This document shows, in pieces, positions 3,160 through 53,241 of a DNA stretch of 64,000 bases (positions are counted from its first letter, which is position 1; every line of letters begins with the position of its first letter). The notes beneath the pieces are model-generated. The model searched no databases and was not told the DNA's origin. It saw only the letters and a program-made list of their open reading frames with translations. Made by a program: the position numbers and the translations under genes. Source of the DNA: a virus (taxonomy: Duplodnaviria; Heunggongvirae; Uroviricota; Caudoviricetes); the IMG/VR virus record IMGVR_UViG_3300045988_150439. The stretch is one strand, 5' to 3'.

Positions 3160-3909
3160 GTGAGCCACATGAGCCAAATCTTTTTCGACACCATCGACAA
3201 CGACCAGTACGACTTCATGACAGAGTGGAATACCGCTGTTATGGATAAGTGGGTTGCTGAAAACATTGGTTTGTCGCGCTGCAAAGACGAGGCTGAACTC
3301 TTCGATACGAAGTGGTTTGATTACCGCGACATGCATCCTCTTATGGCCACCTGTCTGTTTACGGAGGCATACAAACGTCAGTACTCAAATATCATGCTGA
3401 CGCACGGTCGCGAACACTTTGAAACAGCTCCGTTCACCACCGGGTTAAAACGCCTGCCTTATCAGGAGTTGTCGACTGCCAATAAAACGTCGCTATGGAA
3501 AGCACGCCAGTTTGCTGACCGCTATTGCTGCTCATACGACTACTTTATCTCCACCGTTCTTTCCGCAGCTGCACGACGTCTGTGGGACAAGCTGCCTCGC
3601 CCACAGCATTTGTGGCAGCCAGAACTGATTGAGATATTTGAAGAGAAATTAGCCAGACGCGCAACAACCCGTCTGGATGACTCTCTGGTTAGCTTTAAGC
3701 ATATAGGAGACATGCAGTTCAACCCGATCCAGGAAAGCTATTTTGAGTGGATTCTGGAGCGTTTACGCACCATCCCCCGCAGCAAGCGCATACGCGCAAT
3801 TTTCTCCGCTATCTGGCTAATGGAAATCGTTCCAGAGCGCCTTATTTCCGCCCACTTTCCAGAAGAACTGGAAGAAGCACGGCGGTTTATTGATCCCCTA
3901 TCCAATTAA
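3160..3909 (+). CDS. hypothetical protein
   Basis: 249 aa ORF in the coding strand of the block; GTG at 3160 or ATG at 3169; preceded by a taagta-type palindromic motif at 3135-3158. Confidence 0.45.
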   Translation: MSHMSQIFFDTIDNDQYDFMTEWNTAVMDKWVAENIGLSRCKDEAELFDTKWFDYRDMHPLMATCLFTEAYKRQYSNIMLTHGREHFETAPFTTGLKRLPYQELSTANKTSLWKARQFADRYCCSYDYFISTVLSAAARRLWDKLPRPQHLWQPELIEIFEEKLARRATTRLDDSLVSFKHIGDMQFNPIQESYFEWILERLRTIPRSKRIRAIFSAIWLMEIVPERLISAHFPEELEEARRFIDPLSN

Positions 3910-29472: not shown

Positions 29473-31812
29473 ATGGCAAAAGGAAAATCCGCACTGGCAC
29501 TTGCTCTGAAAAAGAAAATCGGTAGCAACGACGAAATTCAGAAAGTAACTCATTGGATTGACACAGGCTTTCCTCCGTTAAACAAAGCTATTTCCGGTCG
29601 TTACGATGGCGGTTTCCCATGTGGTCGTATCGTAGAAGTATTCGGGCCACCAAGCGCGGGGAAATGTGTTACCGCAGACACCATGCTGCTGACGGAGCGT
29701 GGAATGGTAACAGTGAAAGAGTTGTTTGAGATTGAAGGGTACAAAGCGACATGCACTACTCGCGATGTAGAGCATAACGTTGGACTCATCAATGAAAATG
29801 GCGTGATAGAGAAGACCTCACACCTGACATGGAACAACCGTCGCAAATTCAAGCGTATTAAGCTGGCATCAGGCGGTTATATCGAGGCTACGTTCCGTCA
29901 CCCAATCCGTGTGGTTGACGACTTAGGTAATGTCGTCTGGCGACATGCTGAAAAAATCAGTGTAGGCGACACGATTCCTTCAATGGTTGGCACACATCAA
30001 TTCGGCGATCAGCACCTGGATGCCAATATCGCAAAACTGATGGGCTATTTAATTGCTGACGGATACGTGGCCTCTGAAAATTCAGTGAATTTTTCTAACA
30101 CAGATCCTTTCATCAAGGATGAGTACTACCGCCTCATTTCGCTGGTATCAGACAAGATGCCAGTTACGAGAAAACATAACGGCTCGGAAGACCATGTGCT
30201 GTTTAGCAAAGAGGTGCGTTCGCTGCTTTTTAAAGAATATGGTCTGGAGTATGAGAAAGCTGCTGGCAAGCAGGTTCCGTTGAGTGTGCGTCGCGCCAAT
30301 AGCGAGGCTCAAATTGCATTCCTTCGCGGCTACTTTGAGCTGGAATGCCACGTCAATGATGGTCGCTGCATTGAGGTTGTGAGCGCGAGTGGGCTGCTGC
30401 TACAGCAAATTCGCCTCATGCTCCTGAATCTGGGGATTACGTCAACTATCTCTGAAAAACACGTCGCGGGTTATGAAAATACATATTACCGGCTGTCATT
30501 CAGTGGCTCTAATTACGACCTTTTTCTGTCAACGATTGGTTTCGAATCTCCGGCACGTTTATCAGTGGCAACCAAACGGGACATTGGTTTTGACCGCACT
30601 TACTCAGGCTATGTTCCGCACATCAGCGGCTTAGTGAAATCACTCTACGAGTCGCTCACCAAGACCACCCGTGAAGACTACGCTCTGGTAGACCACGTTA
30701 TTGGCCGCGGCGATCGTGTCGGAATAGACAAACTGCGAGAAATCTATGTCTCCTTCATTGGCAGAAAGAATCGTTTTAACGAGCATCTGTTTGCACAACT
30801 GGCAGCGGTAATTGGCTCTAACTTGTTCTACGACGAAGTCGTGGCTATTGAGGAAGGTGAAGCACCAACGTTCGACGTAGCGATGCCGGAAACACACTCT
30901 TTCTGGTCTAACGGGATTATCAGCCACAACACATTCCTTGCAACAGCAGCGATGATCTCCGCACAGAAACAAGATGGTCTGGCGGTATTCCTCGATCATG
31001 AGAACAGTTTTGACGTTGGCCTGGCTGTAGCCAATGGCCTGAACGCAGATGAGGATGACGGTCAGTGGGTATACAAGCAGCCAGATACCTTCGAAGACTC
31101 TGTAGAGTTGATCGGCACAATACTTAAATTGGTTCGTGATGAAGAGCTTATCCCCGAATCAGCACCTATCTGTATCGTGGCTGACTCTCTTGCGTCTATG
31201 GTTCCGAACTCCAAAGCCGAGAAGTTCGAAAAGATGGCTGAAGGCACTGCCAAAGACAAAGATCAGCTAAACATGAACGACAATACGGCACTGGCTCGTG
31301 CGACGAGTGCGAACTTCCCTACTCTGGCTTTGTGGGCACGCAAATACAACGCCTGCATCATCTTCTTGAATCAGGTTCGCACAAAAATCGGTGTAATGTT
31401 TGGCGACCCTACTACGTCGCCAGGTGGAGATTCACCGAAGTTCTACGCTTCTGTACGTATCCGTCTTGGTGCATCGGTGATGAAGGATGGTAAAGAGAAG
31501 ATCGGCCAGGACGTAGGCGCAGAATGCATCAAAAACAAAGTTGCACCACCGTATGGCAAATGCACCTGGAAATTCTACTTCGATCCTACTCGTGGCCTCG
31601 ACGTTATCGAATCGCTCGTCGAGTACATGCTGGAAGAAGGATACCTGCCAAAGAACGCCAGCGGGCGAGTTGAAATTGGTGACAAGAAATACACCAAATC
31701 GCAGATCGTCGAGATGTATCGGGAGAAGCCATTAGCAGAAATCATTGCTGCGTTACAGACGATAGATGACCGACGAGAGAAGACATCACCAACAGAAGAA
31801 CTAGAAGATTAA
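29473..31812 (+). CDS. recA: RecA-family recombinase interrupted by an intein
   Basis: N-extein ends GRIVEVFGPPSAGK; C-extein begins TFLATAAMISAQKQ and carries ICIVADSLASM, IIFLNQVRTKIGVMFGDPTTSPGG and KFYASVRIRL, all RecA signatures. Confidence 0.8.
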   Translation: MAKGKSALALALKKKIGSNDEIQKVTHWIDTGFPPLNKAISGRYDGGFPCGRIVEVFGPPSAGKCVTADTMLLTERGMVTVKELFEIEGYKATCTTRDVEHNVGLINENGVIEKTSHLTWNNRRKFKRIKLASGGYIEATFRHPIRVVDDLGNVVWRHAEKISVGDTIPSMVGTHQFGDQHLDANIAKLMGYLIADGYVASENSVNFSNTDPFIKDEYYRLISLVSDKMPVTRKHNGSEDHVLFSKEVRSLLFKEYGLEYEKAAGKQVPLSVRRANSEAQIAFLRGYFELECHVNDGRCIEVVSASGLLLQQIRLMLLNLGITSTISEKHVAGYENTYYRLSFSGSNYDLFLSTIGFESPARLSVATKRDIGFDRTYSGYVPHISGLVKSLYESLTKTTREDYALVDHVIGRGDRVGIDKLREIYVSFIGRKNRFNEHLFAQLAAVIGSNLFYDEVVAIEEGEAPTFDVAMPETHSFWSNGIISHNTFLATAAMISAQKQDGLAVFLDHENSFDVGLAVANGLNADEDDGQWVYKQPDTFEDSVELIGTILKLVRDEELIPESAPICIVADSLASMVPNSKAEKFEKMAEGTAKDKDQLNMNDNTALARATSANFPTLALWARKYNACIIFLNQVRTKIGVMFGDPTTSPGGDSPKFYASVRIRLGASVMKDGKEKIGQDVGAECIKNKVAPPYGKCTWKFYFDPTRGLDVIESLVEYMLEEGYLPKNASGRVEIGDKKYTKSQIVEMYREKPLAEIIAALQTIDDRREKTSPTEELED
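29665..30930 (+). mobile_element. intein with LAGLIDADG homing-endonuclease domain, inserted in the RecA P-loop
   Basis: Begins with Cys (CVTADTMLL), ends SHN followed by Thr; two LAGLIDADG-type motifs (LMGYLIADGYV and FLRGYFELECHV); removing the 422 codons restores GPPSAGKT. Confidence 0.75.
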
Positions 31813-34003: not shown

Positions 34004-34339
34004 ATGAAGGCCATCCCATTCGCGCTGTTGTTCCTTTCTTCGATCGTTGTGGCCGACACCACTGTTTATCAGTGTGAAATGTCTGTAGCCGACGTTAAGA
34101 ATGGCTCTCTTACCGACGTCATAAAAGCACCATATGGAGCGATGGTCGTAGACAGCGGCGACCAGTTCTATGTTGTGCGTGACGATCGAGTATTGTCATC
34201 CCCATATCTCACAAACCGTAATGGCAAATTAACCGGCGTCGGAGAAGACCACTTCGTATACAACAAATACAAGGGCTTCTATGGCGTTCACGCTTCTCAG
34301 CAAAGCTACCTTTTCGATGACTGCAAGGAGGTTGGATAA
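34004..34339 (+). CDS. secreted hypothetical protein
   Basis: N-terminal signal peptide MKAIPFALLFLSSIVVA. Confidence 0.45.
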   Translation: MKAIPFALLFLSSIVVADTTVYQCEMSVADVKNGSLTDVIKAPYGAMVVDSGDQFYVVRDDRVLSSPYLTNRNGKLTGVGEDHFVYNKYKGFYGVHASQQSYLFDDCKEVG

Positions 34340-34551
34340 TGGCATTAACACTGGCAGGTCTGGAAATCGAGAAAACAAGCGGATACTGGCGTGCTAAGGG
34401 TTTCAAGCAGCCTGGCGTTCTTGAGCGTCTGGAACGTGAAGATGGGTATATCGTCCACCAGCGGCGTGAATGGCGTATGTACGATCCAGAAACAGGAAAA
34501 CTGACTACAAAAGCCGGAACACTTTGGGGCCTGTTGAAGAAAATACACTAA
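34339..34551 (+). CDS. hypothetical small protein
   Basis: 70 aa ORF overlapping the previous stop. Confidence 0.35.
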   Translation: MALTLAGLEIEKTSGYWRAKGFKQPGVLERLEREDGYIVHQRREWRMYDPETGKLTTKAGTLWGLLKKIH

Positions 34552-34558
34552 TAGCACC

Positions 34559-35036
34559 AACCACTGCGGTGAGTAGCCAGCTCACCGCATTCGTATCAGC
34601 TCATTATCCACTGTGGTCTGCAGTCCTCTCTTCCTACATATCTGCTAACCACTGTAGCGAGTAGACAACCTTTCATTCGTATCAAACAACCACTATGGTG
34701 AGTATTGGAGTGAGATGTCCAGCGAGTATCCACTATGGTGAGTAAGCCTTTGCTGTTTTCAGTGGATATCCACTCGCCACAGTGGATACGCTCAAAGATG
34801 AGGGCGACAACAACCACTATAGACAGTAAATTTTCCAAGATACCCAGTGACCACTAACCTCGCAGCCCTTGTTTCATCAGTGTTAGTGATCACTAACATT
34901 TAATTCAGTATTTGCATTCTACTGCCTACAGTGGTTATCAACAGATAACGATACTCACTATAGTGGATAGCGAATTACAGATATAAGTAAGGCTCACTAC
35001 AGTGGATAGTGAGCCTTACTACTAACTACAGTGGTT
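34559..35036. repeat. iteron array downstream of the rep gene (incA-like control locus)
   Basis: About a dozen copies of CCACTRYRG / CYRYAGTGG in both orientations (e.g. aaccactatggtgagta, ctcactacagtggatag). Confidence 0.6.
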
Positions 35037-35039
35037 GGG

Positions 35040-36095
35040 CTATTTGCGAGTCTTTGCCTTGCGCAACTCTTCGAGAAGCGCCAGTTCTTCTTTACTCAAC
35101 ATGACCATTTTGCCTTCTTTTTCGTCAGGCACAACGTCGATAATGTCATCTTGATTCTCATCTGGGAGGCTATATTCCGTCTCATCATTATCGATTTTTG
35201 TTGATATTTGTGCCTGGCGTAACTTTGGCCGCCTATAGTGGATGACGAAGTAGACCGAGTTTCCGCGCTTAACTTCCGTGTAATCGAGATATCCTATCTC
35301 TCGCAGCTGTTCCATAGCCTTTCTTACCGTCGCATTCTGAGTAATAGTGCGACTTGTCAGATTAAGTCTGGCGCGTAAACGGGCTAGTGATATTGGTGCC
35401 GGATCAGGCGGCAAACTTTCAATAAAAGTATAAAGCGCCTGAGCGGATTCTTTTCTTGAGAGTTCGTTTATAGCCCGGAGTTGCAGAAGAACCTTTTTGT
35501 CGAACTGGTAGAGTTCGAAAATCTTGGGATCTGCTTTCAGTTCGACCGTATCGTGCTTGACACTATATTTTGCCGTTTGCACAAGATGCGTTACGTAAAA
35601 CTCATCAGAGCCTTTGCTACGGAACGAGATGGTATTTGTGGCAATACGGCTTAGCGAACTGTCCAGGCGTTTGCGTAACTTCGCTGATGACCTGGCGGTC
35701 GGAATGCCACACAGCCTTACAAACTCAACGAACGGCAGCGTGACAGTATCGCCAACGACCTTGTGTTTGGCAAACGCGTGGATTATTCCCACCCACGTTT
35801 TAAAGTCGTTATCCATATCAAGCCGAAGGCCAGAGATCCTTATGTCTTCGTACCCTTCGGCTTTTGCCAGAGACAGCTGTTTGAGTTCAGCAGAGGCATC
35901 CATAGAGACCATTTGCCCCTTTCTTCCTCTGGATGTCGATTTCAGCGTCGGAACGAAGAGGCCCAGACGCATCAAAGCAACAGGCTGAACAGTGTTATTA
36001 GTGTTAGGAACCAACGTAACAACTTCGCCTGTCTTTTTATCTGTTTCTGAAAATGCTTCAACGATCGCTATGTTTTTATTGCCGTTTTCGCTCAT
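35040..36095 (-). CDS. repA: RepA-like iteron-binding replication initiator
   Basis: 351 aa minus-strand gene bracketed on both sides by iteron arrays with matching core sequence; assignment is by context, not by a recognised protein motif. Confidence 0.55.
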
Positions 36096-36139
36096 TCCAA
36101 ATGTCTCTTGTTATTCGACGGCTTTGGTGGCCTTTGCTG

Positions 36140-36257
36140 ATTACAGTGGATAGTAGCACTCATCACAGCGGTTATCCTACCGTCTATAGTGGTTTTTCTC
36201 CTCTCTATAGTGGTTGCTTTGCTCCCTATAGTGGATTATTCGCTCTCTATAGTGGAT
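36140..36257. repeat. origin iterons, set A (about 21-bp phasing)
   Basis: gattacagtggatag, cgtctatagtggtt, ctctctatagtggtt, ctccctatagtggatt, ctctctatagtggatat at roughly two-turn spacing. Confidence 0.6.
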
Positions 36258-36367
36258 ATCGATCATGTCTGAAGGCAGATGGCACAACGGTTTGAGGTGG
36301 GCGGGGATCTTATTGGGTCTTTATGGGTCTCTTTGGTTCTCTTTGTGATCTGAATTACTGGATCGGG

Positions 36368-36376
36368 CCTGTGGAT
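36368..36376. promoter_or_regulatory. DnaA box (tgtggataa) within the origin region
   Basis: Exact match to the reverse complement of TTATCCACA; further 8/9 matches at about 36416, 36512 and 36743; flanked by GATC clusters and an AT-rich stretch. Confidence 0.45.
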
Positions 36377-36538
36377 AAAAATCAGAGGATTTCAAGAACA
36401 GGTAACTCTACTCTTCTGTGGATATTTAAGGACATAAGAATCATGACTAAGAGTAGAGTTTAAAATATATCTATGTATATCAGTATGTTAATGAAGAATT
36501 AAGTCATTAAGTTATCCATAAAAGACAATGTGCTCTAC

Positions 36539-36640
36539 TCTCTACAGTGGATATATACAGCTCTCCAGAGTGGTTGTTTTACTCTTCATAGCGGTTATTC
36601 AGCTCTCTACAGAGGTTTCTTTGCTCTCCATAGTGGATGG
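36539..36640. repeat. origin iterons, set B (about 21-bp phasing)
   Basis: ctctctacagtggatat, ctctccagagtggttg, ctcttcatagcggtta, ctctctacagaggttt, ctctccatagtggatgg; followed by a GATC-rich stretch at 36665-36745. Confidence 0.6.
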
Positions 36641-36838
36641 CAACACCCTTTCAGACCAGTAACCGCAACGGCTAGAGGCGATCGGGGATCTCTTTGGATC
36701 TTCTATTTGATCTTACTTGGGATCTCTTATTTGGATCTATCCAGTGGATAACTGGGATAAGTAAAACAGGCAAATGCAGATTAAGGTATGCCTAATGAGT
36801 TATCGTAGCATCGGCCAATAACTACTGAAAAAACGATT

Positions 36839-37483
36839 ATGGATCTAAAACGCACGCGCTGGGTTCGTCGTCTTGAGGACGGCTCCTACACTATCGAATC
36901 AAATTCCAACCTGAATAAGCAGAAGTTACTTTGTGATATCTGCGGTATAGCGGCGAAGTGCCCGATCTACGAAACCAGAATTAAACTTGATAAGGCTGGT
37001 GTGAACTTTCATTTGAATAGTTGTATCAGGTACGTTCCATTGCTCGCATTTCGTAAACCGATCATCGGATTGGATGCGCCCTACTTCAACACACTCCGTT
37101 CAGGAGTAACGTGGCGAGATCGTTTATCACCAGACAAGCTGATTTGCCTCGTATCCGCAGACACAGGGAAAATCATCCGTTTTGGGAAAGTAGACAAGGT
37201 TTACTCAGGCCCAGTTGACGAGATGTTGCGGAAACACAGCCGGTTTAATCACCTCTGCATGGGTGGTGAGAAAATCGAGAAGGTTGAAGAAGTGATCCGC
37301 AAATCCTACGGACACTTCCTGACCAAAGATAGCCTGCTCACTGCAATCTACATCAGACATGTAAAACGTGAGTTCGACCTTGAATACCATAGCGAAGAAG
37401 AACTGAACCTTGTCGATCCACGTCCTAAAGCTGGCGTCATAAGCATAAATGCAGCGCGTAAAAAGCCCACTGACGCGCTGTAA
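36839..37483 (+). CDS. hypothetical protein
   Basis: 214 aa ORF after the origin region. Confidence 0.45.
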   Translation: MDLKRTRWVRRLEDGSYTIESNSNLNKQKLLCDICGIAAKCPIYETRIKLDKAGVNFHLNSCIRYVPLLAFRKPIIGLDAPYFNTLRSGVTWRDRLSPDKLICLVSADTGKIIRFGKVDKVYSGPVDEMLRKHSRFNHLCMGGEKIEKVEEVIRKSYGHFLTKDSLLTAIYIRHVKREFDLEYHSEEELNLVDPRPKAGVISINAARKKPTDAL

Positions 37484-37737: not shown

Positions 37738-38823
37738 ATGACTTTGCCATACGGCGTCATTTCTGACTGCCACTACCACAAATGGGATGCGTTCTCCACG
37801 ACGAACGCTGAGGGGCTTAACTCCAGACTTGAAATACAGTTGGAAGCAACGAAAGAAGCAGCCATCGCCATGAAGAAGGCCGGTTGTAAGTACATGTTGG
37901 TTGCCGGTGATACATTTCACGTCCGAGGAACTGTGTCCCCTTCTGTTTTGCATTACGTAACTGAAACGTACAAGTGGATTATCAACGAGCTTGATCTGAC
38001 AGTAGTAATGCTGGCCGGTAATCACGATCTTGAAACCAACGATTCAGTATATAGCGCCAACGCAGCAGCATCGCTGAGTTCTATCGGCGTGGTAATCGTA
38101 TGTGGCAAGCGCCCACACTCAATAAAAATTGGTGATGTGACTGTCCACCTGATTAGCTGGCGTAACAATCATGCGGAGCTTATCAGCGATCTGAAAGCAT
38201 TACGTAAGAGCGTAGAAGGTGATAATCATGACGTTGTTATCCATACATCCATTAACAAAGCCATTCCAACAATGCCTGACGTCGGTATCGATGCGCAGGA
38301 GTTAAAGGATATCGGCTTTCGTCTCGTGCTTAGTGGGCATTACCACAACCACAAAGAGGTCATTCCTGGAGTTATCAGTGTCGGTGCACTGACTCATCAA
38401 AATTGGGGAGATGTTGGATCTCTGGCTGGCTACATGATCGTAAACCCGGACGGCAGTTTCAGTCACTACGAAACCAGTGCGCCTAAATTCATTAACCTGG
38501 AAGATGATGTTGCTGATGACCAAATTCGCGGCAACTACGTGCGTTTCCGCGCCGTAATTGAGAACGATGAAGAAGGCATTAAGTACCAGAACATCCTCAA
38601 AACAATGGGTGCAAAAGGTGTCGTGTGCAACTTCATCCGTAAGTCATCAATGATGGAAGGGACAGCCAGCACAACAGAAACCAGCAAAATCGATAGCCTG
38701 GGAGAGTCGGTATCTGCTTATTGCAAGATTGTCCACGATACTGACGGCGGATTTGATCTGAGCAAGTTGGATATTTTGTGTCAGGAAATCCTCACCGAAG
38801 CGGAGAGTTCGGAGGCTGTGTGA
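37738..38823 (+). CDS. sbcD: SbcD/Mre11-family nuclease
   Basis: Calcineurin-like phosphoesterase motifs (VAGDTFH, LAGNHD, GHYH); immediately upstream of the SbcC/Rad50-like gene. Confidence 0.7.
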   Translation: MTLPYGVISDCHYHKWDAFSTTNAEGLNSRLEIQLEATKEAAIAMKKAGCKYMLVAGDTFHVRGTVSPSVLHYVTETYKWIINELDLTVVMLAGNHDLETNDSVYSANAAASLSSIGVVIVCGKRPHSIKIGDVTVHLISWRNNHAELISDLKALRKSVEGDNHDVVIHTSINKAIPTMPDVGIDAQELKDIGFRLVLSGHYHNHKEVIPGVISVGALTHQNWGDVGSLAGYMIVNPDGSFSHYETSAPKFINLEDDVADDQIRGNYVRFRAVIENDEEGIKYQNILKTMGAKGVVCNFIRKSSMMEGTASTTETSKIDSLGESVSAYCKIVHDTDGGFDLSKLDILCQEILTEAESSEAV

Positions 38824-38864
38824 AGCAAAGTCGTTATGGGAGCTTTCGAGACTTTGCCATCACG

Positions 38865-39056
38865 ATGAAAAGACTTGAACGAGGCCAGACGGTGATGTTT
38901 CACAAGCCCTACCCGCCACAAGGAAATCCCGTAGCGTTTTATCTTGGAAGGTTAACAAGAAAAGGCGTATTGAGGCGCAGATCCTTCCCGGCGCATACGG
39001 AGTTCAGATTGAAAGAAGGTCAAAAGCTAACACACGGTATCAAAGGTGTTATATGA
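38865..39056 (+). CDS. hypothetical small protein (63 aa) between sbcD and sbcC
   Basis: In-frame ATG at 38865 within track ORF 38778-39056; stop overlaps the sbcC start (ATGA). Confidence 0.25.
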   Translation: MKRLERGQTVMFHKPYPPQGNPVAFYLGRLTRKGVLRRRSFPAHTEFRLKEGQKLTHGIKGVI

Positions 39057-40969
39057 AGTTTTTAAAGCTCCAGGTTGAGAATTTTATGGCTATCGCCAGC
39101 GCGGAGGTCGAGTTAGATCAGCGTGGTTTAGTGCTCATTCAGGGTGTGAATAGTGATGATAGTTCCGCATCAAGTAATGGCTCTGGAAAGTCAACTCTAA
39201 TGAATAGCCTGATGTGGTGTCTTTATGGCGAAACAGCTCATGGTGTGAAGGGGGACGATGTGTTGTCTACCGACCATGAAAAGAACTGTCGTGTTGCAGT
39301 AACCATCGAGGATGAAGGCAAGAGATACGCAATCATTCGTCACCGTAAACACAAAGAGTTCAAAAATCGTCTTATCGTTCGTGGTGAAGATGGCGATATG
39401 ACGAAAGGCAAAGATGCGCTGACGCAGGAGTTCGTCGAGCGTCTGATCGGTGCATCTAAAGAGGTTTTCATGGCTTCCATCTATGCGAGCCAAGAAGCTA
39501 TGCCAGATCTACCTGGAATGTCCGACAAAAACCTCAAAACCATCGTAGAAGAAGCCGCTGGCGTTGACAGACTGACACGTGCCTACGCTATTGCTCGTGA
39601 ACGAGCTAACGCAGCTGCCGCACGCATGGACGTGGTTAAAACCAAATTGGAGTCGACAATCTCGACCATTGAGGCAACACAGTCAGAAATTGAGTCCGCG
39701 AAAGCTTCCTCTGAATCATGGGAACAAGAGCGTTCTAAACGTTATGACGATGCCCTGGCTGGGCTGGCAAGTGCCGAAGTTGAGTTAACGGAAGTTGAAC
39801 TTGAGATCCGCACTCTTCCCGAACAGATCCGTGATACCGAGAAGGCAATCGAAAGTGAGCGCAAAAAGTTAGCCTCAAAAGAAGAACATGATGCCAAATT
39901 GCTCAAAGTGCGTGGTGCGATAACTGATATTCGGGCAAGCATCAAAGCTACAGAAAATAGTCAGGCTGATGCAATGAGCCGCGCGCGCAATTTTAAGACC
40001 AAAGCAGAAGAGGTTGGTACTAAAGTAGGATCACCATGCCCTACTTGTGGCAAAGCCTACTGCGAAGAAGATCTATCAACGGTGAAGGAGAATTTCATTG
40101 AACAAGCACGTCAGGAAATTGGTCAGGCGAAGACACTTGCAGAGGCAATGGCTAAACACAAAACGAATCTTGAGAAGGCGTTAAGCATTGAGTCTGCCCT
40201 TGTTAAAACGACACCTGATGTAACGGCTATCATTGCCCGGATTGAAGAGCTTACTAAACAACTTTCATCTTTGCGTCATCGTGAGAAGGAGGTTGTTGCT
40301 ATTGAGTCTCTTGTGACTCGTGCTCGTACTGAGGTCGATCGTATATCAAAAGAGATTAATCCGTTTACTGCTCTTATCGCCAGACACGAAGATAACCTGG
40401 TATCCAGTAAGTCTACCTTCAAGTCCTTAAAAGATGAGTTGAAGGCTATTCAGGAACAAACGTTGCTATTGGAAAAAGCTCGTCAGGTCTACTCTCCTGC
40501 CGGGGTGCGTTCTCATATTTTGACGTCTGTTACGCCTTTCCTGAATACACGCACAGCCGAATATCTCAATACGTTGTCTGACGGGAACATTACTGCTGAG
40601 TGGTCGACGATGGATGTCACTAAAAAAGGTGAGTATCGCGACAAATTCAACATTAGTGTGCAGAAGAAAGGTTCAAGTAAGTCGTTCCAAACCCTCTCTG
40701 GTGGTGAGAAGCGGAAGGTTCGCATTGCGTGTTCTTTGGCATTGCAGGATCTGGTTAGTAACCGGGCGAGTAAAAACATCGATTTGTTTATCGGCGACGA
40801 AATTGACGATGCACTCGATACAGCCGGTCTTGAACGCCTCATGGGTATTCTGGAGTCCAAAGCTCGCGAGCGAGGTACTGTGCTGATTATCTCCCATAAA
40901 GAGATGAAGTCATGGTTCAGGGAAACTATTACGCTGGAAGTTAAAGAGGGGCGCAGCTATGTCGTTTAA
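39053..40969 (+). CDS. sbcC: SbcC/Rad50-family ATPase
   Basis: N-terminal Walker A NGSGKST, long coiled coil with central CPTCG zinc hook, C-terminal signature LSGGEKRK and Walker B LFIGDEID. Confidence 0.7.
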   Translation: MKFLKLQVENFMAIASAEVELDQRGLVLIQGVNSDDSSASSNGSGKSTLMNSLMWCLYGETAHGVKGDDVLSTDHEKNCRVAVTIEDEGKRYAIIRHRKHKEFKNRLIVRGEDGDMTKGKDALTQEFVERLIGASKEVFMASIYASQEAMPDLPGMSDKNLKTIVEEAAGVDRLTRAYAIARERANAAAARMDVVKTKLESTISTIEATQSEIESAKASSESWEQERSKRYDDALAGLASAEVELTEVELEIRTLPEQIRDTEKAIESERKKLASKEEHDAKLLKVRGAITDIRASIKATENSQADAMSRARNFKTKAEEVGTKVGSPCPTCGKAYCEEDLSTVKENFIEQARQEIGQAKTLAEAMAKHKTNLEKALSIESALVKTTPDVTAIIARIEELTKQLSSLRHREKEVVAIESLVTRARTEVDRISKEINPFTALIARHEDNLVSSKSTFKSLKDELKAIQEQTLLLEKARQVYSPAGVRSHILTSVTPFLNTRTAEYLNTLSDGNITAEWSTMDVTKKGEYRDKFNISVQKKGSSKSFQTLSGGEKRKVRIACSLALQDLVSNRASKNIDLFIGDEIDDALDTAGLERLMGILESKARERGTVLIISHKEMKSWFRETITLEVKEGRSYVV

Positions 40970-52647: not shown

Positions 52648-53241
52648 ATGATTGCAGCCGAAAAAATCAAACAGCGAAAGCGCGACAACTCTCTTCGTGA
52701 CCTCTGGAGAACACCTGATTGGCTGTTTTCTGCCATTCAACGTTATCTTGGAGTGACATTTGATGTTGACGTTGCCTGCAACAAGGACAACGCAAAGCTG
52801 CCTAATTTCATAGGCATTGAGCGTGATGCTTTGAAATCTGAATGGGGACAGCCAGGTACAATTGCCTTCCTCAATCCACCCTACTCCAAAATCTCCCCCT
52901 GGATTGATGCTGCTATACGTGAGCAGGCTCGCGGAGTTACAACAGTGATGCTAATTCCTCAATCCCTCGATACAAAGTGGTATGAGCGTGCAACAGAGTA
53001 TGCGAATGAGACGATTATTCTGTCTGGTGGCCGCGTAGCGTTTGTCGAGCCTGACGTCAATTTGGGTCAGGTAGAAGTAAACATCAACCCCGGTGGCAGT
53101 ATGCTCGTTGTTTTTCGAGGATTCTGTCAGGACGCTGGGCACTCTATAAGCAAGATCCCTTTGGACGTCATGAAAAGTCTGGGAGGGTATAATCCTGCGA
53201 ATGTGATCAGGAAAAAAAGACCATCAAAGAAGGCTGCTTAG
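52648..53241 (+). CDS. DNA N6-adenine methyltransferase (phage Dam-like)
   Basis: NPPY catalytic motif (FLNPPYSKISPW) and size (197 aa) fit small phage N6A methyltransferases. Confidence 0.6.
   Translation: MIAAEKIKQRKRDNSLRDLWRTPDWLFSAIQRYLGVTFDVDVACNKDNAKLPNFIGIERDALKSEWGQPGTIAFLNPPYSKISPWIDAAIREQARGVTTVMLIPQSLDTKWYERATEYANETIILSGGRVAFVEPDVNLGQVEVNINPGGSMLVVFRGFCQDAGHSISKIPLDVMKSLGGYNPANVIRKKRPSKKAA

Follow-up and report, generated by a model that had tools for sequence, protein, structure and literature searches.

Does the iteron-bearing locus of this 64-kb stretch of phage DNA (the whole stretch analysed, hereafter the window) serve to maintain a plasmid, and if so, which of the two repeat sets ahead of its rep gene acts as the origin? 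The earlier note read the locus as a plasmid replicon and contrasted this with a chromosomal location. We consider that positions 34555-36760 very probably represent the P1-type plasmid-maintenance replicon of an SSU5/pHCM2/Cyrano-like phage-plasmid and, as part of the same assessment, that the replicon is of the iteron-controlled theta class, MOB-suite type IncFIB. It is already known and annotated, and there is no chromosome-versus-plasmid paradox. The duplication of its origin, in which two tandem modules resembling P1 oriR lie upstream of the rep gene, each with DnaA box(es), a GATC cluster and five iterons, is one unusual feature of an otherwise ordinary replicon, and a modest lead.

The initiator gene and the iteron arrays

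The repA gene lies on the minus strand (35040..36095), so that "upstream" of it means higher coordinates. Its 351-aa product is predicted, from Pfam, homology and fold, to be an iteron-binding initiator of the Rep_3 family (WH1-WH2). Both Pfam domains, Rep3_N (1.3e-10) and Rep3_C (1.3e-4), exceed their curated cut-offs, with 42.2 bits for PF01051 (cut-off 22.4) and 22.6 bits for PF21205 (cut-off 21.1), and the protein is 47.5% identical to P1/P7 RepA (tblastn, E 1e-71). All 571 homologues contain PF01051; the names found among them are RepA, RepB-family initiator and RepFIB RepA, and the locus itself is already annotated repA in H8 and Cyrano. The top PDB fold matches of an AF2 model, built with database homologues and used for fold class only (pLDDT 64, core 70-88), were RctB, RepE and pi. 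Since a PDB sequence search with the single RepA and with a 12-member family profile matched nothing meaningful, the link to these three proteins needed the fold search; an NCBIfam search gave no match for RepA or the neighbouring genes. Pfam Rep_3 domains, P1/P7 homology and fold matches together identify RepA as a predicted replication initiator, where the earlier note would have given up its reading had the protein fallen into a non-initiator family.

Iterons were mapped with a position weight matrix (PWM) trained on the 10 strong upstream copies alone, with the downstream region (34550-35045) left out; the resulting consensus, CTCTCTATAGTGGWT, agrees with the repeat core proposed previously. 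Both upstream sets of five repeats, phased at about 21 bp, were recovered on the plus strand. The proximal array (36137..36261) has five strong 19-mers, at 36159, 36180, 36201, 36222 and 36243, and a weaker sixth at 36137 (spacing from the latter 22, 21, 21, 21 and 21 bp), and it ends 42 bp ahead of the repA ATG. It is kept at -57 to -163 in relatives, where it is also visible in a 12-sequence footprint, and five phased iterons persist in all of them. By position it corresponds to P1 incC, and it would presumably be the repA operator/promoter region; in the P1 annotation the equivalent iteron array carries PrepA. The distal array (36538..36642) has five copies, at 36538, 36561, 36582, 36603 and 36624 (spacing 23, 21, 21 and 21 bp). 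Three to five copies are present in 48 of the 49 relatives with two arrays, Y. pestis pMT1 included, and two copies in the remaining one (L052).

Downstream of repA lies an incA-like control array (34555..35040) of 12 iterons spaced 20-47 bp apart, six in each orientation, matching the dozen direct and inverted copies noticed earlier. Those oriented as the upstream arrays start at 35022, 34993, 34954 and 34922 (the four nearest repA), 34773 and 34753; the inverted ones start at 34808, 34724, 34684, 34643, 34602 and 34555. These 12 matches of at least 11.5 bits within 34550-35045 compare with 0.024 expected (Poisson P ~8e-29), shuffled sequences gave a mean of 0.03 and a maximum of one match, and the other 61.4 kb of the window hold three. 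The downstream array is conserved among relatives. A thirteenth iteron (35229..35247, plus strand, score 14.2) falls within the 3' part of repA, at codons ~283-289, near the point where P1 RepA ends. Many relatives have one at the matching place (+824 to +851), a conservation that coding constraint may explain. Matches at 2112-2795 are weak, lie within a 567-aa ORF and were judged to be due to chance, and a de novo iteron search in the Photorhabdus locus L055 gave AT-rich noise.

Two tandem origin modules

The proximal module spans 36137-36378 and the distal module 36538-36760. This layout is kept in 49 Enterobacterales loci, pMT1 of Y. pestis among them; its carriers include pMT1, pHCM2, SSU5 and Cyrano, together with plasmids of Rahnella, Erwinia and Pantoea. 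A single module is found in P1, RepFIB/SJ46, PhiR41_1 and Pantoea megaplasmids. One origin module per replicon would be expected of the P1-type family, whereas here there are two in tandem, and the two-module origin is thus a variant architecture within that family. We found no description of it in the searchable literature on the pMT1, pHCM2 and SSU5 replicons, a body of text that does not extend to the early pMT1 work.

The outer end of the distal module is formed by two tandem DnaA boxes on the minus strand, TTATCCACT (36743-36751, one mismatch) and a degenerate TTATCCCAG (36752-36760), and these align with the tandem boxes TTATCCACA TTATCCACT of P1 oriR. In 16 of 17 diverse relatives a DnaA box with at most one mismatch precedes the distal GATC cluster by 12-22 bp. 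The distal spacer and GATC cluster (36643..36737) contain GATC at 36680, 36687, 36697, 36709, 36721 and 36734. The segment holding all six sites (36680-36737) is the sole place in the 64 kb with at least four GATC per 100 bp, a density with P ~3e-7 per 58-bp window. Among the relatives, 48 of 49 loci have 5-7 sites in this cluster, where the background is 0.8, and the 12-sequence footprint shows five GATC columns without variation. The distal block is 79% identical (91/115) to the P1 oriR core (z=23.8) and 77% identical to the single module of PhiR41_1. In sequence, 36643-36737 is the counterpart of the Dam-site/heptamer core of P1 oriR. Next to the distal iterons, on the side facing repA, there is a further DnaA-type box with one mismatch, TTATCCATA (TATGGATAA in rep orientation; 36512..36520, plus strand), and in 12 diverse relatives the corresponding column holds a TGTGNATAA-type box, which fits the consensus TTATNCACA for DnaA.

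The proximal module is headed by the only exact DnaA box in the 64 kb (TTATCCACA, 36370..36378, minus strand), and most relatives have a box with at most one mismatch at this position. Its GATC/heptamer block (36262..36364) is partly decayed: GATC occurs at 36261, 36306, 36347 and 36361, and through mutation three repeats of the GGATCT type now read GGGTCT, GGGTCT and GGTTCT. Identity to the P1 oriR core is 75% over 106 aligned bases (z=9.9). Relatives have a mean of 3.3 proximal GATC sites, with 0-2 in 11 of 49 loci and none in six. The earlier placement of an exact DnaA box, an AT-rich stretch and dense GATC segments between the two arrays stands for the box, the stretch and the four sites at 36261-36364, but the densest GATC cluster lies beyond the distal array.

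The inter-module spacer (36417..36525) contains a DnaA-like box with one mismatch (ATATCCACA, 36417..36425, minus strand), the AT-rich stretch (~36425-36525, 76-80% AT) and a sigma-70-like match, and it varies in length and composition among relatives. We did not retain the stretch as an unwinding element, since neither its position nor its composition is conserved. The best match of a promoter scan, TTAACA-16-TATATT (36491 to 36464, directed at repA), was likewise set aside as the repA promoter, because it sits in this non-conserved spacer, and a match within the proximal array relies on an iteron that most relatives lack. For the proximal array, the scan turned up no sigma-70 promoter that was both convincing and conserved.

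How, then, might the two modules share the work? We lean towards a split in which the distal module is the firing origin and the proximal one is mainly the repA operator and an extra array for RepA binding and handcuffing. It is as the best-preserved look-alike of P1 oriR that the distal module is proposed to fire. The split is favoured by the more P1-like distal block (z=23.8 vs 9.9), by a GATC cluster that is kept distally in 48 of 49 loci but lost or reduced proximally in 11, and by the invariable placement of the proximal iterons directly ahead of repA. One may also consider that the proximal module fires and the distal one is accessory (a negative-control/handcuffing array, or a back-up or conditional origin), or that both fire redundantly, a possibility that we take seriously without expecting it to hold. 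By position it is the proximal module that corresponds to the sole origin found in P1, RepFIB/SJ46, PhiR41_1 and the Pantoea megaplasmids, which argues against the split; moreover, it owns the exact DnaA box, keeps its five phased iterons everywhere and has an AT-rich stretch just outside it in this window. As most lineages still have 3-5 GATCs and a DnaA box there, it may itself fire. Yet decay has affected its GATC heptamers here and in most lineages, and 6 of 49 loci lack them; the P1-oriR-core sequence has been kept by the distal block instead, and the AT-rich stretch is not conserved among relatives. Which module fires concerns the internal mechanism alone, and a proximal origin is compatible with the P1-type identification.

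Likeness to P1 and plasmid maintenance

The order of elements matches the annotated oriR/incC/repA/incA of P1: DnaA boxes in tandem come first, then some five GATC heptamers, five iterons spaced 21 bp apart, repA and a downstream array of mixed orientation; the mixed orientation also emerged when P1 incA was mapped by the same method. Directly upstream of rep there are five direct iterons (36159-36261, 21-bp spacing), beyond them one or more DnaA boxes and some five clustered GATC heptamers, and downstream of rep a second, irregular array with copies in both orientations; the initiator is a Rep_3 (WH1+WH2) protein homologous to P1 RepA. The core of DnaA box, GATC and spacer is 79% identical at the nucleotide level, both replicons have a DnaA box on the repA side of the iterons as well, and each is the plasmid replicon of a phage-plasmid. 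This shared architecture, the homology of RepA to that of P1/P7 and the homology of the core to P1 oriR bear out the reading of the locus as a plasmid replicon. There are also differences. The iterons are unrelated (GATGTGTGCTGGAGGG in P1, ATCCACTATAGAGAG here), so that specificity and incompatibility differ; the origin module is double here and single in P1; and there are 12 downstream iterons here against nine in P1. The RepA of this element has ~39 extra N-terminal and ~58 extra C-terminal residues, the latter forming an acidic low-confidence linker and a terminal helix in the AF2 model, and no par operon abuts the control array.

From the anatomy and by analogy with P1 we infer RepA-iteron binding, Dam/SeqA dependence, the initiation site and the repA promoter. 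RepA monomers would bind the 21-bp-phased iterons and host DnaA the boxes flanking them, while the GATC-rich heptamer block would be the Dam-methylated region of opening and sequestration. The element also has a gene for a Dam-family methyltransferase of its own (52648-53241). RepA bound to the iterons adjoining repA would repress the gene, and the downstream array of 12 iterons may limit copy number by RepA titration and by handcuffing with the origin iterons, as P1 incA does. P1 copy number is classically quoted as lower than the 5.5 of Cyrano, hence copy control may differ between the two.

Given that the element is a phage and that its replicon lies among genes for RecA, an SbcCD-like protein, DnaE, a DnaB-like helicase and NrdAB, one could ask whether the locus is the origin of the lytic cycle rather than of plasmid maintenance. 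We regard this as very unlikely. Replicons of the iteron/Rep_3 kind that include a copy-control array serve low-copy maintenance, the homologous oriR/repA of P1 is annotated as a plasmid origin, and P1 has a separate lytic replicon. Non-phage plasmids and megaplasmids (Pantoea, Rahnella, pMT1) replicate by means of this replicon too, and the element's own polymerase and helicase genes would suit lytic replication.

The surroundings of the locus agree with plasmid maintenance. The replicon region is 99.2% identical to that of phage Cyrano (pLF82), 83% to that of SSU5 and 99.7% to ~110-kb non-mobilizable IncFIB plasmids; one of these, pAMPD01, is typed as IncFIB and non-mobilizable by PLSDB/MOB-suite, which places the present replicon in that type. 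All 64 kb are colinear with circular plasmids of ~105-125 kb and with Escherichia phage Cyrano, and both 25-kb flanks with plasmid records of ~105-113 kb. Such colinearity with SSU5, Cyrano or pHCM2-type elements of ~100-125 kb makes the element SSU5-like; the SSU5_pHCM2 group of the SSU5 supergroup is defined in PMC7969092. Among 5,426 complete E. coli genomes, all 406 places where the replicon matched were on plasmids and none was chromosomal, which, as far as the records of relatives tell, is the extrachromosomal state. Replication as a plasmid, which had been suggested for this element, is documented for near-identical ones: Cyrano/pLF82 is a plasmid at ~5.5 copies per chromosome in overnight cultures (PMC9928086), and the pMT1 replicon has served as an incompatibility curing vector against pMT1 (PMC6199537). 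With this plasmid context, no contrast between plasmid and chromosome is left to explain. That the replicon sits inside a chromosome, as an integrated plasmid or prophage remnant that may be silent or defective, has next to no chance of being right, since beside the earlier note's own statement, the sole support for it, and 14 chromosomal places that the first 25 kb of the window match in part, there stand the colinearity and the lack of chromosomal places just described, a window in which no flanking chromosomal DNA is visible, an intact repA and the preservation of all origin elements.

Related replicons and significance

The same IncFIB-typed replicon occurs against another host background in pMT1/pFra of Y. 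pestis and in pHCM2/SSU5 of Salmonella, with RepA 91% identical. In pMT1 and SSU5 the two upstream modules and the downstream array are found at near-identical coordinates, although pMT1 has 15 downstream copies against 12-13 here and the boxes differ by a few substitutions. RepFIB (P307/F/pO157, with phage SJ46 as representative) is more distant, its RepA being ~44% identical. Its rep, too, is flanked by iterons, BCDD'D'' upstream as the origin and E-K downstream for control, and its incompatibility is exerted by the downstream block (PMC11983097). In SJ46 a DnaA box is followed by five GATC and six iterons, but RepFIB differs in its single upstream module, its iteron sequence and its shorter Rep. 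Since the iterons differ, incompatibility with classical RepFIB is unlikely.

The sibling SSU5-like phage-plasmids PhiR41_1, CMS-2020a and the Klebsiella pKPHS1-like elements have their replicon in the same slot, between Cra-like and ASCH-like genes. Their DnaA/GATC block is homologous (77% identical) and their Rep 49-51% identical, whereas the module is single and the iteron is another one (GTATGCTGTCAGCGG). Sequence comparison thus points to an exchange of the rep-plus-iteron specificity cassette, with the host-factor half of the origin retained. Finally, V. cholerae chromosome II ori2/RctB and mini-F ori2/RepE, whose initiators gave the RepA model its best structural matches, share iteron origins that include a DnaA box, together with Dam/SeqA control (ori2) and the logic of titration and handcuffing (PMC6090056). 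With no detectable sequence homology, another type of site (39-mers) and another architecture, they resemble the present replicon in working mode and are not members of its family.

SSU5-like phage-plasmids are, according to one report, common in clinical Enterobacteriaceae and able to carry resistance genes (PMC9600943), and one relative of this element carries dfrA51. A map of the origin, operator and control iterons aids replicon typing, incompatibility-based curing and the design of mini-replicons, although its practical value is modest. One tentative and, to our minds, rather doubtful generalisation is that of an ancient duplicated origin with divided functions, conserved across a large Enterobacterales family of plasmids and phage-plasmids. 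The distal module would have kept the Dam/DnaA opening core and would fire, and the proximal one would have kept only its iterons and a DnaA box, as repA operator and additional handcuffing partner; alongside, the host-factor half would have been conserved from P1 onward while rep-plus-iteron cassettes were swapped, giving new incompatibility specificities. The locus offers a natural example of origin modularity, in which a conserved DnaA/Dam core is joined to an exchangeable Rep-iteron specificity, and a conserved duplicated origin with a possible division of labour.

RepA and the plasmid state of the element

The replicon region (34555-36760) consists of one long ORF with dense repeats on both sides. 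This ORF, repA (35040-36095, minus strand), encodes a protein of 351 aa in which Pfam Rep3_N (WH1) and Rep3_C (WH2) both score over the curated thresholds. The protein is 47.5% identical to RepA of phages P1 and P7 (residues 40-293, E 1e-71), 49-51% to Rep of other SSU5-like phage-plasmids and about 44% to RepFIB-type RepA; PF01051 was present in 571 of 571 database homologues, and those that are named are called RepA, RepB-family initiator or RepFIB RepA. PDB sequence searches with RepA returned nothing. The top eight PDB fold matches (E <= 1e-3) of its AlphaFold model (mean pLDDT 64, core 70-88) were exclusively iteron-binding initiators, i.e. RctB domains 2-3, RepE and pi, followed by TrfA and a Rep WH1 domain. 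Pfam, homology to P1/P7 and fold all identify an initiator, and not the non-initiator family that the earlier note had named as a refutation of its reading.

That note also assumed a chromosomal location, with which plasmid replication would contrast. Escherichia phage Cyrano matches the replicon region at 99.2% identity, Salmonella phage SSU5 at 83% and many plasmids of ~105-125 kb (from E. coli, Shigella, E. albertii and E. marmotae) at 99.7%, one of these plasmids being typed as IncFIB; 437 of the 461 plasmid records matching the region are non-mobilizable. Since the two terminal 25-kb segments of the window are also colinear with these plasmids, and since all 406 places of the replicon among 5,426 complete E. 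coli genomes fall on plasmid records and none on a chromosome, the chromosomal location is unsupported and the claimed contrast is an error. That the element replicates as a plasmid was known already: Cyrano, the pLF82 plasmid of E. coli LF82, is a virion-producing SSU5-like phage-plasmid with 5.5 copies per chromosome as determined with repA primers (PMC9928086), the SSU5 supergroup is an established phage-plasmid family that takes in pHCM2 and Y. pestis pMT1 (PMC7969092), and pMT1 is tabulated as cured by incompatibility with its cloned replicon (Ni et al. 2008, as listed in PMC6199537). The replicon is thus not new: it is IncFIB-typed, its repA is annotated in hundreds of records, and the phage-plasmid family to which it belongs is recognised, with a documented plasmid state.

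According to the Cyrano annotation, the replicon is adjoined by an ASCH-like gene (36839-37483) and a 'P1 Cra'-like gene (34339-34551). Just past the origin (37738-40969, plus strand) are SbcD-like (Metallophos) and SbcC-like (AAA_23/SMC_N) nuclease genes. Elsewhere, a RecA-like gene (29473-31812, plus strand; Pfam RecA 3.4e-36) is split by an intein that contains a LAGLIDADG homing-endonuclease domain (LAGLIDADG_3 2.4e-17, Intein_splicing 2e-11); because recA at the same place in the 99.8%-similar plasmid NZ_OZ369471 is uninterrupted (1,074 nt), presence of the intein is polymorphic within this lineage of phage-plasmids. The same near-identical relative (NZ_OZ369471.1, 34147-34623) carries an annotated trimethoprim-resistant dihydrofolate reductase, DfrA51, inside a nucleotide-metabolism block (nrdAB, thyA).

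Iteron arrays and origin sites

An iteron PWM, trained on the ten strong upstream copies alone, was run over the whole window. The proximal array has five strong iterons at 36159, 36180, 36201, 36222 and 36243 and a sixth, weaker one at 36137 (spacing 22, 21, 21, 21 and 21 bp), and the distal array at 36538, 36561, 36582, 36603 and 36624 (spacing 23, 21, 21 and 21 bp). Downstream of repA (34550-35045) the PWM found 12 copies independent of the training set, six per orientation, against 0.024 expected from the rate in the rest of the window (Poisson P about 8e-29); that rest (61.4 kb) gave three matches at equal threshold and the shuffled downstream region at most one. The exact DnaA box TTATCCACA (36370-36378) is the sole exact copy in the 64 kb, with one-mismatch boxes at 36417, 36512 and 36743; a stretch at 36425-36525 is 76-80% AT, and six GATC sites at 36680-36737 form the sole window segment with at least four GATCs per 100 bp. 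A promoter scan gave no assignable repA promoter. PWM scan and site mapping thus recover the iterons, DnaA box, AT-rich stretch and GATC-dense segments of the earlier description, which erred only in placing the densest GATC cluster between the upstream arrays; it actually lies past the distal one.

A further PWM match lies in the 3' end of repA (35229-35247, plus strand, codons about 283-289), at a position kept in many relatives. RepA has a C-terminal tail (residues about 294-351; window 35040-35215) that is absent from P1 RepA. The tail consists of an acidic low-confidence linker (pLDDT <50, residues 290-332) and then a predicted helix (335-350), and its weak Pfam match to T4_y05I_C is sub-threshold (E 0.005). 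Since the intragenic iteron lies close to the P1 boundary between the end of RepA and the start of incA, it suggests that this extension of roughly 58 aa originated by read-through into a former control region.

Duplicated origin module and exchanged specificity cassette

The GenBank annotation of P1 gives, in the direction of repA, a DnaA binding site, five Dam sites, five incC iterons (RepA-binding, spaced by 21 bp and carrying PrepA), repA and nine incA iterons, a layout that our mapping method recovered exactly when run on P1. Both upstream modules match P1 oriR in order and size, bearing out the proposed P1-type architecture: the DnaA box is about 112-120 bp from the first iteron, compared with 118 bp in P1, and incA iterons occur in both orientations, as in the window's downstream array. 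The P1 oriR core is 79% identical to the distal block (36643-36765; 91/115 bases, z=23.8 against shuffles), and the equivalent block of phage-plasmid PhiR41_1 77%, whereas identity of the P1 core to the proximal block (36262-36390), in which three GGATCT repeats are mutated to GGGTCT or GGTTCT, is lower (75% over 106 bases, z=9.9). In contrast, the iterons of P1 (GATGTGTGCTGGAGGG), PhiR41_1 (GTATGCTGTCAGCGG) and the window element (ATCCACTATAGAGAG) are mutually unrelated. By these alignments, the host-factor half of the origin is conserved while the cassette for Rep-plus-iteron specificity has been exchanged. In PhiR41_1 and CMS-2020a the DnaA/GATC block and adjacent ASCH-like gene are about 84% identical to the window (for PhiR41_1, 36650-37000 against 3240-3572 of its locus), whereas the rep gene is at 49% aa identity, with other iterons and a single module. 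Homology with these sibling SSU5-like phage-plasmids breaks off at the margin of the distal iteron array, a pattern that likewise points to cassette exchange.

Scanning relatives with one genome per species gave 80 loci (Rep identity 62-91%), of which 49, the window included, have two upstream arrays, with the proximal at about -57 to -163 and the start of the distal between about -340 and -755 (in most cases near -420 to -550). Among the 49 are Y. pestis pMT1 and loci from Kluyvera, Buttiauxella, Rahnella, Erwinia, Pantoea, Tolumonas, Cedecea and Xenorhabdus, whereas only one module is present in P1, RepFIB (phage SJ46), PhiR41_1 and the subgroup formed by Pantoea megaplasmids. By its distribution among sequenced relatives, the duplicated module is conserved and appears to be old. 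The Pantoea megaplasmids (contigs to about 970 kb), driven by a Rep 65-68% identical, carry iterons with a variant core, TTCACTGTAA, and their downstream iteron fields are very long, reaching about 700-1000 bp or more past rep.

The 130 bp before the distal array hold 5-7 GATCs in 48 of the 49 loci (background 0.8); they average 3.3 before the proximal array, with 0-2 in 11 of 49. In a 12-sequence alignment, the DnaA box, five GATCs and a AGATCCCCG motif are invariant columns of the distal module, and an inverted DnaA-type box, TGTGNATAA, is conserved at the repA side of its iterons. Most lineages have GAACC or GACCC in place of the two middle GATCs of the proximal module, whose five iterons are strictly retained. 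On balance, we lean towards the distal module as the firing origin, with the proximal one serving mainly as operator and as an additional array for RepA binding. A tentative alternative is firing from the proximal module or from both; in its favour, the proximal module is orthologous by position to the single origin in other replicons and still has the sole exact DnaA box. Both the tandem modules and the conserved-core/swapped-iteron pattern are worth a note. We found no description of them in the searchable literature, the original pMT1/pHCM2 papers lying outside it, so we claim no novelty for them.

Proposed mode of replication

Direct observations comprise RepA's identity and family, the sites with their conservation and the plasmid context of all relatives; onto these a mechanism can be mapped from the P1 annotation and from iteron-plasmid biology, including that of RepFIB (PMC11983097) and the logic of titration and handcuffing (PMC6090056). 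RepA would bind the phased iterons and DnaA the flanking boxes, with Dam-methylated GATC heptamers as the probable region of opening and sequestration. Bound to the iterons adjoining its own gene, RepA may repress repA, and the downstream array would limit copy number by titration and handcuffing. The window also encodes a phage-type N6-adenine methyltransferase (52648-53241, plus strand; Pfam Dam PF05869, 5.3e-38). If this enzyme is GATC-specific, it could methylate the GATC clusters of the origin independently of host Dam.
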